Shown: positions 524 to 13,903 of the stretch, piece after piece
How positions within the stretch are numbered: the first letter of the stretch is position 1
Layout: the number at the start of each line of letters is the position of its first letter
Source of the DNA: Methanobacterium sp.
Lineage (GTDB): Archaea > Methanobacteriota > Methanobacteria > Methanobacteriales > Methanobacteriaceae
Reading direction: 5' to 3'
Length of the DNA: 15,387 bases
NCBI GenBank assembly: GCA_003166335.1
Contig: PMWA01000054.1
Coordinates: 1,602-16,988, forward strand
Position numbers and translations under genes: made by a program
The notes under the pieces: model-generated
Seen by the model: the letters and a program-made list of their open reading frames with translations, nothing else
Database searches by the model: none
Told to the model about the DNA's origin: nothing

Positions 524-1582
524 TTATATTGCATATCTTAAAAGCGCTGCAATTCCGCCCAAAGCAGATAATTGTTTTCCACCCTCATGTTCACTACTTA
601 TAACCATCACTTTACCCCCTAAATTCTCAGTGACATCCATCATCCTCTCCACATCTTCATTACGAAGTAACTCATCAATAATTAGCAACTGTTTCACAGC
701 ACCTGCATCAACAGCATTCTTAACTTCATTTTTTCCATACGTCACCATATTAGATGATTTACCAACTTCCTGCAATAATTGATTTATCAACCGCATTTCC
801 TGGGCAATACGTCCTTCAGTAGCCATCTCCTCCAGAACACCTTTTTGTAAAATTTCCCGAATCCCAGCTCTACCACCAGCTCCAGTACTCTCTAAACGAG
901 CTATTTTAGATAGTTTAGGATAATTCTCATCAAGGAACTTATAGAAATCATTTTTCCAAAACCCCGGGCCACCAATAACTATCCCTTCTATCCCCTCGAA
1001 ACTACTGATAGTTTTGATGATTTCATCATAAAAATCATTTAAAATTTTCTGCCGATTTTTTTGTACTTCTCTTTTACCTGTGATTCCCCCAATAATAGGG
1101 CCGTAATACTCCACTCCATACTGTCGTAGGATACCTAGATCTGCAACGTCATCTTCAATTATAATTACTAATGCACGAGGAGTTTTTGATGCTTTGATAG
1201 CGTCTTTAATTCTCTTTTGATGCCAACGAGTCCATCTTTCCTTTTGGATTTTAACCGAATTTTTAAGCTTCAAATCTAAGGTGTGATGGGAGCCTAAAGG
1301 GACTAAGTCTTCTGGCCCCTTTTCAATGACACCAGTAGTTCGTAGTTTCCCCGTGTACTTATGGAATTTAATGCTTTCAACACGTATGCCAATAAAGAAT
1401 GTTTTTTTAATTCCTCGATCGCTGCGTAATCGTTCTCCAGTTGTATCTTGTATTCGGCGGGTGGTTCTAGATGAGACCAGATCTCCTGGCTCTATAATAT
1501 GAGATAAATGCCATAAATCATCTAGAGTTTCAGGTAATAACTCTATAAGTCCTCTTCTAGCATCTTGATGAATTATACGCAT
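524..1582 (-). CDS. pelA: Pelota/Dom34 ribosome rescue and mRNA surveillance protein
   Basis: 352 aa; PETLDDLWHLSHII, GSHHTL, GPGFWK, YGKNEV, SSEHEGGKQLSALGGIAALLRY (eRF1-family domains). Confidence 0.97.
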   Translation of the reverse strand: MRIIHQDARRGLIELLPETLDDLWHLSHIIEPGDLVSSRTTRRIQDTTGERLRSDRGIKKTFFIGIRVESIKFHKYTGKLRTTGVIEKGPEDLVPLGSHHTLDLKLKNSVKIQKERWTRWHQKRIKDAIKASKTPRALVIIIEDDVADLGILRQYGVEYYGPIIGGITGKREVQKNRQKILNDFYDEIIKTISSFEGIEGIVIGGPGFWKNDFYKFLDENYPKLSKIARLESTGAGGRAGIREILQKGVLEEMATEGRIAQEMRLINQLLQEVGKSSNMVTYGKNEVKNAVDAGAVKQLLIIDELLRNEDVERMMDVTENLGGKVMVISSEHEGGKQLSALGGIAALLRYAI

Positions 1583-1865
1583 TTATAAAACCACTTTTTT
1601 TGATGTAAGAACGAATATGAATTTGATTTAAGGAAAAAAAATCGTGATAAATCTTACTTATTTATATTACAAATATTTTTTTTATTATCCATTGTTCATA
1701 AGTTTTCTCTTATTTCTAGAATTAATTCTACTAAAAAATTAATGATAATTTATGATTTTGAAGAGCTGGAAAGATTAAAAAAAAATGATTTTAGACATTT
1801 TGGATTAATAAATTAATGAGTATATACTAAAGATTTAAAATACATGGTTTTCCATAGATAACTCT

Positions 1866-3170
1866 ATGCAAGTGGCGATTATTGGTGGTACTCGTGGATT
1901 GGGAAATTGGATAGCTAATTTTCTTAAAGAAAGAGGATGTGATGTAATCATCACCGGTCGAAATTCTCTGATGGGAATGGAGATATCTGAAAAAATTGGG
2001 GTATCCTATACTTCCAATAACATCGAAGCTGCATCTGGAGCTGATATAGTGATTTTAGCGGTTCCCATAGATGTAACTCCTAAAATAATAATGGAAGTTG
2101 CTCCACACTTAAAAGAGGGTTCATTGTTAATGGATGTCACTTCTGTAAAGGAAGAACCATCACGGGCGATGGAGGAATTTATTCCAGATGGTGTGGAATT
2201 TATTCCTACTCATCCTATGTTCGGTCCCAGAATTAAATCCTTGGAGGGACAGGTTGTTGTATTAACACCATTGGATAAGGGTAAATGGTACGAGAAAGTA
2301 AATAAATTTTTAGAATCAGAAAATGCTCGTGTTATTGAAACCACTCCACAAATTCATGATCAAATGATGAGCATTGTCCAAGGTTTAACTCATTTTGCAT
2401 ATATCAGTATTGCTGTAACGTTGGAACGATTTCAGGTGGATGTTAAGATGTCCAGAAAATTTGCAAGTCCAGTGTATAGTTTGATGCTTGATATGATTGC
2501 TAGAATAGTTTCACAGAATCCTTATATGTATTATTCTATTCAGACTCAAAATCATTACGTTGCTGAGGTTCATAAGCAGTTTTCCTCCACTATTGATGAG
2601 TTGAATGATATATTAACCCATAACAATGAGGAAAGATTTGTAGAAGTCATGAGTTCAGCAGCTAAATATTTAGATGATTTAGAAGCATCTCTTGGAAGGT
2701 CTGATAAAGCGATATCTGTACTTACCGAGGAGATTAGGATATTGAAAAGTTCATTAGGTGAGGAAGTTGGCTTGAGACATATATATTCCGGAAGAATTCA
2801 TGTAGGGATTTTAGAGGAGATTACACCAAATTTTGTAATTATCAATAGTCATAACATGCTAGTAAAATTAAAAATATCGAATATAGAAATCTTAAACCCA
2901 AAGGAACTAAAACTATACAAGAATGAAAATTATCCAAGGAAGATTTTCGATGTTTCCGTTATTTTACCTAAGGATTCTAATCCAGAAGTGATATCAAGTA
3001 CAATAAGGACTTTAAATGATGTGGCAGATGTTTATGTCGAAGATGTGTATCAAGGCAGTCAGATCGAATCTGGAATGAAAAGCATCACTTTTAGATATCA
3101 CGTAATAGATGTTGAAGCACGAACTACTGTTGAAAAACTTCTTAAGGGTTTCGGCGGAATCGTACGATAA
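1866..3170 (+). CDS. tyrA: Prephenate/arogenate dehydrogenase with ~140-aa C-terminal extension
   Basis: Rossmann motif IIGGTRGLG, DVTSVK, THPMFGP, HDQMMSIVQGLTH. Confidence 0.95.
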   Translation: MQVAIIGGTRGLGNWIANFLKERGCDVIITGRNSLMGMEISEKIGVSYTSNNIEAASGADIVILAVPIDVTPKIIMEVAPHLKEGSLLMDVTSVKEEPSRAMEEFIPDGVEFIPTHPMFGPRIKSLEGQVVVLTPLDKGKWYEKVNKFLESENARVIETTPQIHDQMMSIVQGLTHFAYISIAVTLERFQVDVKMSRKFASPVYSLMLDMIARIVSQNPYMYYSIQTQNHYVAEVHKQFSSTIDELNDILTHNNEERFVEVMSSAAKYLDDLEASLGRSDKAISVLTEEIRILKSSLGEEVGLRHIYSGRIHVGILEEITPNFVIINSHNMLVKLKISNIEILNPKELKLYKNENYPRKIFDVSVILPKDSNPEVISSTIRTLNDVADVYVEDVYQGSQIESGMKSITFRYHVIDVEARTTVEKLLKGFGGIVR

Positions 3171-3478: not shown

Positions 3479-3513
3479 TTTATATATATTGTACTACAAT
3501 GTTATAGTAACAT
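3479..3513 (+). promoter_or_regulatory. cdc48 TATA box (TTTATATA 3479-3486) followed by two overlapping inverted repeats
   Basis: Consensus archaeal TATA with A-rich BRE-like upstream sequence; ATTGTA-C-TACAAT (3488-3500) and ATGTTA-TAG-TAACAT (3499-3513). Confidence 0.55.
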
Positions 3514-3621
3514 AAGTTAACTAAATTATAATTGAAGTATAATTTCTTTTTTATCTATTTAAAGATTAACATTTATCTTTTAAGGATTTGAAAGGAGGAT
3601 TTTAACATTAACAATAAAGAA

Positions 3622-5796
3622 ATGAAATTAAAAGTAGCAGAAGCATATTCCCAAGGAGATGTAGGTAGATCAATAGCTAGAATAGACCCTAAATGCATGG
3701 AAAACCTTGATCTACTCGACGGGGATATAATAGAGATTGAAGGCAAAAAATTAACCGCCAACACTGTAGCCTCATCCCAATTAGACATAGGATTGGGAAT
3801 AATCAGAATAGATGGTTACATCAGAAAAAACGCTGGAGCTTCTATCGGAGAAGAAGTAACTGTAAGGCACGCTAAAGTTAAGGCAGCACAGAAGATAACC
3901 CTAGCGCCAGTCGATCAAAAAATCAGAATTACAGGAGATGTTAAAGGTGCATTTCAGGGACGAGTACTCTCCAAAGGAGATATAATAATCACCGGGATCA
4001 GACAACAAACCGTACGAAGCGGATTATTCGATGAATTCTTCCGTGAAATGGGTACTAGCGTCAGTCCAATGGGAGAATTAAAACTCGCAGTAATCGCCAC
4101 TAAACCCGCAGGAGTAGTTAAGGTCACTGAAATCAGTGAAGTAGAAATACAATCAGAACCCGTTGACATAGCTAAATTAGAAGGAGTAAAAACACTTATA
4201 GATGTAAATTATGAGGATATCGGTGGACTCAAAGAAGAAGTTAAAAAAGTCAGGGAAATGATAGAAATACCCCTCAAAAGACCTGAACTCTTCGAAAGAC
4301 TGGGAATATCACCACCAAAAGGAGTTCTAATGCACGGACCTCCAGGAACAGGTAAAACATTACTAGCTAAAGCCGTAGCTAATGAGACTGATGCACACTT
4401 CATCAGCATTCAAGGACCGGAAATCATGAGTAAATACGTGGGCGGATCCGAAGAAAGACTCAGAGAATTCTTTGAAGAAGCAGAAGAAAACGCTCCAAGT
4501 ATAATTTTCATAGATGAATTAGATGCTATCGCTCCAAAAAGAGAAGAAGTCTCTGGAGAAGTGGAAAGACGAGTAGTAGCTCAACTCTTAACATTAATGG
4601 ATGGACTTAAATCAAGAGGCCAAGTAGTAGTGATAGGAGCAACTAATAGGGTTGATTCTCTAGATGGTGCACTGCGACGTCCAGGACGTTTCGACCGGGA
4701 GATTGAGATTGGAGTGCCAGATAAAGACGGTCGCCGAGAAGTGCTTCAAATCCACACCAGAGGAATGCCATTAGATGAAAAAGTAGATCTCGATGAAATT
4801 GCTGAGATAACCCATGGTTTTGTAGGTGCAGATCTACAGTCACTTTGTAAAGAATCAGCTATGCGAGTTATAAGGCGAGTTCTCTCTGAAATTAAGGGTG
4901 ACGAGGAGATTCCACAGGAAACCTTGAAGAAAATGATTATTAATAAGAATGATTTCAAGGAAGCCCTTAAAGAAATTCAACCCTCAGCACTTCGTGAAGT
5001 AATGGTACAGGTTCCTGATATAAAATGGGATGATATTGGTGGCCTAGAATCTGCTAAACAGGAGTTAATAGAGGCTGTTGAATGGCCTTTAAAATATCCG
5101 GAGAATTTTGAAAAATTCGGGGTTAAACCACCTAAAGGTGTTCTAATTTATGGTCCACCGGGAACAGGTAAAACATTGTTAGCTAAAGCAGTAGCTAATG
5201 AAAGTGCATCAAACTTTATAGCTATTAAAGGACCTGAATTATTATCTAAGTGGGTTGGTGAATCAGAGAAAGGTGTACGTGAAGTATTTAGAAAAGCTAG
5301 ACAAACAGCACCAACAGTAATATTTTTCGATGAAATAGATTCTATAGCCTCCACTAGAGGTGGCGGTAGCTCTGACAATGGTGTAACACAGAGAGTGGTG
5401 AATCAACTTCTCACCGAGATTGATGGTATGGAAGAGTTAACGGATGTAGCTGTAATTGCCGCTACAAATCGAGTGGATATACTAGATCCCGCATTGGTAA
5501 GGCCTGGAAGATTTGACAGACATGTTAAAGTAGAAGCACCTAATGAAGCAGGTCGTTTATCAATATTTAAAGTTCACACTAAAAAAATGCCTTTAGCAGA
5601 AAATGTGAGCCTAAAAAGACTTGCTAAAGAATCAGACGGATATGTAGGTTCAGATATCGAAGCTGTGTGCCGTGAAGCTGTTATGTTAGCTCTCAGAGAA
5701 AACTTAGAAGTAGATACTATCTCAATGAAATACTTCAAAGAAGCCATGAAAAAGGTTAAAACAGAAGAGAAAATGGAATTGATACAGTATCATTAA
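3622..5796 (+). CDS. cdc48: Cdc48/VCP/VAT AAA+ ATPase (true start may be ATT at 3607)
   Basis: N-domain ([10 protein letters not shown]) and two AAA modules, each with [17 protein letters not shown]; Walker B IIFIDELD and [19 protein letters not shown]-terminus IQYH. Confidence 0.98.
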
Positions 5797-9709: not shown

Positions 9710-10243
9710 TTATTTGCGGAATAAACTATAAGGAAAAGTTTCTTTTAACCATATTAAGACTTCATCATGATGAATAATATTGTAAGTCCTATTAAGCATG
9801 AGTGAATTTGTATCAAAGATTTTAGAAAGCTCTGGAGTAGCTTCTTCCACATAGACAGATTTTATTTCCCTGCGAGATTCTATGTTATGTTTCCTGAGAA
9901 TTCTTCCAATGGGAGTGTCAGCTTTGATAAGATCCTCCTTAAATTCATTATCTAATCGTTTTATAGGAACTAATGAAACGGCATATATTAAAGGTTCTTT
10001 GGTTCCGATCACCACTACTCGGTAGTTTACAGTTTCGCCTTCATTTATATCCAAATTATCTGCCATTTCCTTAGTGGCTGGTATAAACTTTTGTGTTAAT
10101 GTATTAATATCCACGTGACCCATTAAAACATCTAATATATTAGTTACAGAGCCATCTGTAATTAAAAGTATTTTCTGTGCACTGGAAAGTTTACCAACAG
10201 TTTTCTCTATATTTTCAAGACTATCAAAAATATTCTGATCCAT
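9710..10243 (-). CDS. Chorismate pyruvate-lyase (UbiC/DUF98, UTRA fold) family protein
   Basis: QKILLITDGSVT, PLIYAVS, DTPIGRILRKHNIESRREI, RTYNII, KETFP. ATG 10243 preferred over TTG 10261 because GGGGATGG lies upstream as an SD. Confidence 0.85.
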   Translation of the reverse strand: MDQNIFDSLENIEKTVGKLSSAQKILLITDGSVTNILDVLMGHVDINTLTQKFIPATKEMADNLDINEGETVNYRVVVIGTKEPLIYAVSLVPIKRLDNEFKEDLIKADTPIGRILRKHNIESRREIKSVYVEEATPELSKIFDTNSLMLNRTYNIIHHDEVLIWLKETFPYSLFRK

Positions 10244-10287
10244 AAAAAATTCCATCCCCAAAGAATTTATTTTCTTTTTTACATATC

Positions 10288-12892: not shown

Positions 12893-13438
12893 TTATTGAG
12901 GTGATGATTCCAGAAGTTCCAGATATGATCTTCTTTCAAATCCATCTGTAACACCTAACTTCAGATATAAACGGAATATTTCATCCAATGACTCTTGGTA
13001 ATCTGCTCCTTCATTAAGATCCTTCTCTATCTCCACAAAATTTCCTACTTCATGAACAGTGTCAAGGGTTATTATATATTCATTAATAGTATAAAAAATT
13101 CTATCCTTTTTCACAGGTCTCACAGGCTTGAATCCAAGTTTTTCAAGGATTAATTTAGTGTTTTCTAAATCTTCTATATTAACCTCGATTTCTTCACGAG
13201 TTTTACTTAATTCATCTAATTTAGCTCCTTTATATGTAAGAATTATTTCAAATCCACCTTTACTTGTTACTTTTCTTATTCTTAATGCTTCATCTGTCTG
13301 GGCAAAGTCGCGGTGAGGAGCATTAAAGTAAATATCCTCTTGATATTCTGTTCTCACTTCTCGAGCACCAATCGAGGATAGTTTAATCTTAATTTCTTTA
13401 AAATCAGTTAAATGTGCTTTAACTTCAACTTCTATCAT
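12893..13438 (-). CDS. cyaB: CYTH-domain protein (class IV adenylate cyclase CyaB-like / triphosphate tunnel metalloenzyme)
   Basis: EVEVK (ExExK), QEDIYF, ALRIR, LTYKG, REEIE, GNFVEIE, RRSYLELL. Confidence 0.9.
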   Translation of the reverse strand: MIEVEVKAHLTDFKEIKIKLSSIGAREVRTEYQEDIYFNAPHRDFAQTDEALRIRKVTSKGGFEIILTYKGAKLDELSKTREEIEVNIEDLENTKLILEKLGFKPVRPVKKDRIFYTINEYIITLDTVHEVGNFVEIEKDLNEGADYQESLDEIFRLYLKLGVTDGFERRSYLELLESSPQ

Positions 13439-13498: not shown

Positions 13499-13903
13499 TT
13501 ATCGCACTTTATCTTGGATTTGGTTGCGTATGTAGTTTCGAGAATCATCGATTTGAGTTAAATAATTCTCAATCATGGTTTCAATGATTTCATAGGCAGC
13601 GAGGGTGAGTTTTCTCTCTTTTTTTATAGACTTCCTCTTCTGATAGAGTTTTTCAACCGACATTTTCTTGCCGAATAATCCTTTTTTAAGGGCTAGTTCA
13701 TCGATATTCTGCATCTTCTTAATATAATCCAACCTAATTTTTCTAATATCAGCCCGGAGGTTATACTTGATTTTTTTCAGCACTTCTTCCCGATCAGATA
13801 ATTTATGTAAAGTTTTCATACTCTTCTCTAGAGATGATACGTTTAACTCCATATCTTCAATACCAGTATCATATATCTGTTGTCGGTATGTTTGAGGGTT
13901 CAT
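13499..13903 (-). CDS. Hypothetical basic, all-helical/coiled-coil protein, 134 aa
   Basis: Strong SD GGAGGTGA (13920-13913); intact ORF with K/E/R-rich helical composition. Confidence 0.85.
   Translation of the reverse strand: MNPQTYRQQIYDTGIEDMELNVSSLEKSMKTLHKLSDREEVLKKIKYNLRADIRKIRLDYIKKMQNIDELALKKGLFGKKMSVEKLYQKRKSIKKERKLTLAAYEIIETMIENYLTQIDDSRNYIRNQIQDKVR

Follow-up and report, generated by a model that had tools for sequence, protein, structure and literature searches.

Profile and fold comparisons confirm that the tail of a Methanobacterium sp. prephenate dehydrogenase (TyrA) is a shortened homologue of the anticodon-binding domain (B8, or FDX-ACB) of PheRS beta. The domain, which has a beta-alpha-beta-beta-alpha-beta fold, is encoded at positions 2931..3167 (plus strand) of a 15,387-nt window (assembly GCA_003166335.1, contig PMWA01000054.1, positions 1,602 to 16,988 of the forward strand), the window being the whole stretch of DNA analyzed. 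Translation of this interval gives 79 amino acid residues, corresponding to residues 356-434 of a 434-residue open reading frame. The residues with which PheRS holds G34 of its tRNA have counterparts in this tail and are selectively conserved in its relatives.

The tyrA Gene and Its Product

The tyrA gene (P0001; 1866..3170, plus strand) encodes a prephenate dehydrogenase of 434 amino acid residues, which by sequence is a member of the known archaeal TyrA-REG family. NCBIfam profile NF006408 (PRK08655) matches residues 1-434 with 629.1 bits against a cut-off of 422, and the close relatives that are named in the homologue list are Methanobacterium proteins. The catalytic core (residues 1-275; 1866..2690, plus strand) comprises the nucleotide-binding PDH_N and the dimerization PDH_C domains, with Pfam matches to PF02153 (E 2e-36) and PF20463 (E 9e-27). 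Core residues S93, K95, H116, H164, D165, and Q172 are identical throughout 37 sequences. Q217 probably represents the position linked to prephenate preference; it was paired by eye with Q227 of the M. harundinacea enzyme via a primer printed in PMC5681985.

The full-length AlphaFold model (pLDDT 94.9, pTM 0.82) reveals, in order, the catalytic core, a long linker helix (residues 272-295; 2679..2750, plus strand), a helix plus five-strand barrel (residues 290-345), a further helix, and the beta-alpha-beta-beta-alpha-beta domain (residues 358-434). Upstream, a TATA-like box can be read from the sequence 24-32 nt 5′ of the start codon (1834..1842, plus strand), suggesting that tyrA, from its presumed start site, carries little or no 5′ leader. 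Contigs of peat RNA from four libraries (three studies) span parts of tyrA and its tail; strand, start, and level are not readable from such contigs, and DNA carry-over is possible.

The archaeal TyrA extension was named REG in 2005 in a paper that cited COG4937, only presumed regulation, and referred to Porat 2004 for tyrosine inhibition in M. maripaludis; the words “tRNA” and “anticodon” are both absent from its main text (PMC1173090). From the family and the organisms listed there, the tail described here probably corresponds to REG (COG4937). The M. jannaschii TyrA-REG protein (Q58029), whose cluster is recovered by the tail profile, is of the same family and architecture, with no difference in kind. 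We presume that COG4937 now carries the label of an FDX-ACB domain, in which case the homology already stands on record as annotation. None of the best 60 of 148 matches to solved structures is a TyrA-REG; they fall on the core, on unrelated nucleotide-binding domains, or on PheT.

The C-Terminal Domain Is Related to B8 of PheRS Beta

A sequence-only reading of this DNA had suggested that the tail follows the pattern of the bacterial PheT C-terminus, and profile and fold searches bear this out. The Pfam FDX-ACB profile (PF03147) matches the tail with E 2.4e-6 and 28.3 bits, which misses the gathering cut-off of 31.1 bits; the tail is therefore filed as a divergent FDX-ACB homologue and not as a formal member. 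The same profile scores 24.9 bits on the whole protein and 28.9 bits on the M. jannaschii protein. TIGR00472 (pheT_bact) matches the tail with E 1.5e-7 over profile positions 707-771. FDX-ACB was recovered at E ≤ 1 in 37 of 40 relatives' tails (best 4.7e-9) and at E ≤ 0.1 in 29 of the 37 distant full-length proteins. PF03147 also appears in the precomputed annotation of 34 of 120 listed homologues (counted by eye), so that the FDX-ACB call is visible in databases. Alignment of the tail to PheT C-termini with hhalign gave a probability of 99.0% (E 3.8e-18), a value that is partly circular because the PheT set used for it and for the tree was chosen by the tail profile; the Pfam, TIGR00472, and fold searches are independent of that choice. 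When ranked by the tail profile, TyrA proteins come first, followed by bacterial PheT C-termini.

The AlphaFold model of the tail (pLDDT 94.4) was compared with 48,161 representative chains, among which B8 of PheT is the best structural match (2rhs; Z 12.8, rmsd 1.4 Å over 77 residues); the next non-PheRS chain has a Z of 10.4 and an rmsd of 2.5. Foldseek also places PheRS chains at the top and additionally returns MscS channels, which have the two-domain layout in common with the tail (E about 1e-4, rmsd about 11). The 77 tail residues align to 89 residues of PheT (712-800), with no counterpart of the “RTL” segment found in B8, in agreement with the earlier impression of a shortened domain. 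With B8 of bacterial PheRS beta and of mitochondrial PheRS, the tail has fold, motifs, and G34/A35 contact residues in common, whereas it differs in being about 12 residues shorter, in lacking the “RTL” segment, in scoring below the Pfam cut-off, and in being fused to a metabolic enzyme.

B8 had been expected to be absent from archaeal-type PheRS beta, and the genome's own PheRS beta, which is of that type, indeed ends without it; the TyrA tail is the only match in the genome to PF03147, and likewise the only one to the tail profile. An unrooted tree built on 87 columns separates 38 tails from 12 PheT domains with support of 98/94, which is compatible with one ancient fusion; it gives neither direction nor donor.

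The sequence-only reading had allowed that the shortened domain might instead act as an ACT-like amino acid sensor; the ACT domain likewise possesses a beta-alpha-beta-beta-alpha-beta fold, one common to many families. No ACT family matched TyrA in Pfam at E ≤ 10, and none occurred among the best 25 of 39 families matched by the tails of 40 relatives. Against ten ACT domains from the same genome, hhalign gave the tail a probability of 0.5%, and ACT chains match the domain at Z 7.4-8.4 (rmsd 2.1-2.5), well below B8. FDX-ACB consequently prevails on residues 356-434, and an ACT domain is ruled out by HMM, profile (0.5% versus 99%), and fold ranking (Z 7.4-8.4 versus 12.8). By comparison, the Bacillus-type TyrA-ACT, which carries a Tyr-binding ACT domain, resembles the present protein in combining a TyrA core with a C-terminal ferredoxin-like appendage (Z 7.4, rmsd 2.5), but the appendages are without sequence or profile similarity, and the Sm-like domain is an extra feature of the TyrA described here.

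Equivalents of the PheRS Anticodon-Contact Residues

In PheRS-tRNA complexes, an Asp binds N1/N2 of G34, an aromatic residue stacks on this base, an Arg binds its O6/N7, and a Ser its O6; in one such complex A35 is bound by a Ser and a Thr, and an Asp and a Gln contact the 36/37 ribose and the backbone, respectively (PMC8136816, PMC7540514). Alanine is said to be commoner in PheT than the A35-binding Ser/Thr pair (PMC8136816). Alignment to 7k9m identifies D362 and S364 of TyrA (2949..2957, plus strand) as the equivalents of the PheT contacts to the A36/A37 ribose and to base A35, respectively (PMC8136816). Farther along, D393, Y395, Q399, S406, and T408 (3042..3089, plus strand) correspond in the same alignment to the Asp hydrogen-bonded to G34, the stacking aromatic, the backbone contact, the Ser at G34 O6, and the Thr contacting A35. 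The C-terminal R434 (3165..3167, plus strand) ends the structural alignments, where it is equivalent to residue 830 of 7k98, 780 of 2iy5, and 414 of 3cmq, and represents the Arg that binds G34 O6/N7. The G34-recognition set of Asp, aromatic, Ser, and terminal Arg is complete in TyrA (D393, Y395, S406, R434). The ninth contact position is occupied by E392, at a site where bacterial PheRS has Phe and human mitochondrial PheRS has Ile.

These positions are selectively conserved. Across 54 non-redundant Methanobacteria sequences (under 75% identity, kept from 160), the nine contact positions have a mean identity of 0.84 versus 0.57 for the domain, a mean that 26 of 200,000 random position sets reached, although kinship among the sequences causes such permutation values to overstate. 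When the 41 polar positions are ordered by conservation in this set, the top seven are all contact positions, and all four G34 residues are present in 46 of the 54 sequences. Conservation extends to 37 distant representatives (27-48% identity; two PheT fragments dropped): D362 is found in 29, S364 in 32, D393 in 31 (with Glu in four more), Tyr or Phe at 395 in 35, S406 in 30, T408 in 33, and R434 in 31, while Q399 is variable (10 of 37). Twenty-four possess the full G34 set and 13 lack at least one member of it. In this group Ile is the residue most often present at 392, and Lys is among the two commonest at 399, both as in human mitochondrial PheRS, which is a proven tRNA binder (PMC8136816).

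Genomes with two tyrA genes serve as natural controls. In all three examined, the copy adjacent to pelota keeps D393, Y395, S406, T408, and R434, and the non-syntenic second copy (L073, L074, and L075 in genomes G047, G069, and G097) has lost Y395 and R434, with all nine core residues checked intact. The decay of the anticodon site next to an intact catalytic site suggests that the former is not needed for fold or catalysis. The site is kept in the second copy of another genome (L047), and it is lost in two single-copy genomes (G086 and G022) chosen for their low scores.

The Predicted Hfq/Sm-Like Barrel

Residues 290-345 (2733..2900, plus strand) are predicted to form a helix followed by a five-stranded Hfq/Sm-like barrel. 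The model superimposes on S. aureus Hfq (1kq1) with Z 8.3 and an rmsd of 1.3 over 54 residues, and on M. jannaschii Hfq (2qtx) with Z 8.0; a designed SH3-like barrel matches equally well (Z 8.1), and because of this tie only the fold is indicated. Pfam yields no Sm, LSM, or Hfq family match to TyrA, the sole candidate being DUF2642 (E 0.09), which matches 14 of 40 relatives (best 2.7e-4), and the ESM Atlas provided no usable match for residues 288-355. Thus, of the Sm-like module proposed in the sequence-only reading, the predicted fold stands (Z about 8). The likeness to Hfq and Lsm proteins lies in this predicted fold (Z 7.7-8.3, rmsd 1.3-1.6); the barrel differs from them in having no family-level sequence match and in being embedded in an enzyme.

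Three TyrA representatives of 350-362 residues (P0200, P0213, P0262) match the tail profile over the Sm-like part only; these could be incomplete records, or else natural variants that lack the B8-like domain.

Distribution and Genomic Setting

Within the class, 120 of 121 genomes yielded a full or partial match to TyrA; at the level of the phylum, 196 of 201 have the tail. The tail profile recovered 175 matches at E ≤ 0.001 from 1.84 billion representatives. Among the 150 of these listed, 38 are 400-500 residues long, of which 36 possess a TyrA core and two, near the bottom of the list, are PheT fragments; with respect to other fusions, none of the same 150 is longer than 477 residues, and the short matches, which might otherwise be taken for stand-alone forms, may be gene fragments. 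Named sources include Methanocaldococcus (with Q58029), Methanohalobium, Halorutilales, Halobacteria/Halobacteriota and Bathyarchaeia bins, and one unclassified bacterium; most matches carry no source name, so that the distribution beyond Methanobacteria rests on a few. Scanning the genome collection with one distant member returned two bacterial matches, both to the core only. In control genomes, PF03147 is present in M. jannaschii and absent from H. volcanii, S. acidocaldarius, and M. acetivorans.

The tyrA gene lies between pelota (524-1582, minus strand) and cdc48 (3622-5796, plus strand), an order kept at most of 30 related loci, where a small open reading frame, missing here, often separates pelota from tyrA. 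These usual neighbors are neither aromatic-pathway nor synthetase genes, and no tRNA or synthetase gene was recognized among the open reading frames neighboring tyrA. A tRNA-Phe gene was not found among the 27 tRNAs of the assembly, which include tRNA-Tyr (GTA); this is probably an assembly gap.

Several further features of the window deserve mention. Upstream of cdc48, about 20 nt downstream of a TATA box, is an imperfect palindrome (TAGTAAC-N4-GTTAACTA; 3504-3528, plus strand), which visual inspection revealed in each of the 26 regions shown upstream of cdc48 genes and which we take to resemble an archaeal heat-shock repressor operator of the Phr/HSR1 type. Three related sites (G000:C90:8246-8406) precede a small helix-turn-helix-like gene. 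A chorismate pyruvate-lyase-like gene (9710-10261, minus strand; PF01947, E 3e-33) directly follows the genes for homocitrate synthase and the homoaconitase large subunit and precedes FEN1. Upstream of a CYTH/class IV adenylate cyclase gene (12893-13438) is an open reading frame for 134 amino acid residues (13499-13903, minus strand) with no Pfam or NCBIfam match.

A Possible Role in tRNA Binding

The conservation of anticodon-gripping residues suggests that the enzyme likely binds a tRNA. Specifically, we consider the chances slightly better than even that the ligand of the tail is the anticodon loop of a tRNA with G34, either tRNA-Phe or tRNA-Tyr. The grip on G34 would come from D393, Y395, S406, and R434, the reading of base 35 from S364 and T408, and contact with the 36/37 ribose from D362, with the Hfq/Sm-like barrel adding RNA surface or spacing. 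Since S364 and T408 copy the A35-bonding Ser/Thr pair, this analogy makes tRNA-Phe (GAA) a somewhat likelier ligand than tRNA-Tyr (GUA), a modest preference given that Ser/Thr hydroxyls could also read U35.

That tRNA would in addition control catalysis by TyrA is a more doubtful step. The full proposal, which we advance tentatively and with the balance of probability against it, is that TyrA-REG is directly regulated by tRNA: with a synthetase-derived anticodon reader and an Hfq-like barrel, the enzyme would detect free tRNA-Phe or tRNA-Tyr and direct prephenate toward tyrosine or phenylalanine. Most speculatively, free tRNA, accumulating in shortage, would bind TyrA and tune the enzyme where the pathway branches at prephenate. 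Free tRNA-Phe, for instance, might damp TyrA and so leave prephenate to PheA, itself equipped with an ACT domain; such control would add to the usual feedback by tyrosine.

A number of observations count against tRNA reading. The contact residues overlap the motifs that reveal the B8 homology, and some could be structural. The domain has a slightly negative mean net charge (-1.7), E392 stands where PheT usually has Phe, and the “RTL” segment is missing. PheRS holds its tRNA through further domains besides B8 (PMC8136816), so that the tail alone may bind weakly. Moreover, the anticodon carries no information on whether a tRNA is charged, and sensing would thus require an additional assumption. 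The G34 site is lost in the two single-copy genomes and incomplete in 13 of the 37 distant representatives, and tyrosine inhibition has been reported for the M. maripaludis enzyme (cited in PMC1173090). The position of tyrA between pelota and cdc48, away from any recognized tRNA or synthetase gene, likewise lends the proposal no support.

Other ligands might account for the same conserved face. The G34 pocket could have been reused for a free guanine nucleotide or a short oligonucleotide signal (GTP, GMP, or similar) acting as an allosteric regulator. This we regard as unlikely: although D393, Y395, S406, and R434 jointly define a conserved guanine pocket in a domain that is not basic, S364, T408, and D362, whose contacts are to positions 35-37 and not to G34, are equally conserved, which points to a longer RNA ligand. 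It is quite unlikely that the tail is ACT-like in function, binding free Tyr or Phe for feedback control without any RNA role. It has no ACT sequence signal, and the positions it conserves coincide exactly with those that contact RNA in B8, notwithstanding the general fold shared with ACT chains (Z 7.4-8.4, rmsd 2.1-2.5) and the conceivable use of Y395 and R434 to hold an aromatic amino acid. Tyrosine inhibition of the M. maripaludis prephenate dehydrogenase has been ascribed to REG, but the same paper states for the family that Tyr can inhibit at the catalytic core by substrate mimicry (PMC1173090).

Alternatively, the conserved face might be a protein-protein surface, used for oligomerization, for docking on the catalytic dimer, or for a partner such as a synthetase, the tail then being structural. 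The MscS-like two-domain layout (E about 1e-4, rmsd about 11) and the defined arrangement suggested by the pTM of 0.82 would fit, and Sm folds usually oligomerize. We nevertheless find this distinctly improbable, as it leaves the retention of specifically base-reading residues unexplained, and second copies lose just those residues with their catalytic residues intact. Finally, the tail could act as a translational regulator by binding an mRNA hairpin that resembles an anticodon loop, either in the tyrA message or in another one of the aromatic pathway. Two RNA-associated folds in tandem, one of them Hfq-like, would suit such a role, and synthetases that repress their own mRNA by tRNA mimicry are known. 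Nonetheless, inspection by eye of the 100 nt upstream of tyrA at 50 loci revealed no common element, and in close relatives the TATA-like box lies so near the start (about 30 nt upstream) that almost no leader is left. The earlier suggestion that TyrA reads its own mRNA is accordingly not upheld as far as a conserved leader is concerned, and we hold mRNA binding in general to be very unlikely. Binding to a G34 tRNA remains our preferred reading of the tail.

Relation to Previous Work

We found no paper linking TyrA-REG to tRNA, nor one linking an FDX-ACB or PheRS anticodon-binding domain to prephenate dehydrogenase, in a literature search that covered few subscription papers. Within it, COG4937 is mentioned only in PMC1173090, and nothing was found on the function of the TyrA-REG tail beyond presumed regulation; passages of PMC11237513, PMC2739858, PMC13759103, and PMC5681985 contain nothing on this tail. 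A loose precedent is a methanogen Hmd paralogue that binds prolyl-tRNA synthetase (PMC2739858). The sequence-only reading had regarded the tail of long methanogen TyrA proteins as without functional explanation; it had in fact already been named REG/COG4937 and presumed regulatory, while no later explanation has come to light. What is added to the 2005 description is the resolution of REG into predicted Sm-like and B8-like domains, the latter with retained G34-site residues. The occurrence of retained and selectively conserved anticodon-site residues beside an Hfq-like barrel in a biosynthetic enzyme is seemingly unreported.

Were the regulatory proposal true, TyrA-REG would be a protein-level counterpart of the T-box riboswitch, with amino acid biosynthesis coupled to translation directly at the enzyme. 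We know of no biosynthetic dehydrogenase with direct enzyme-level coupling of this kind. Nearly every member of the Methanobacteria sampled carries the tail, relatives of rumen and gut methanogens among them, as do several further groups of archaea. Even without regulation, these archaea retain on a metabolic enzyme an anticodon domain of the PheRS type that is missing from their own PheRS beta.
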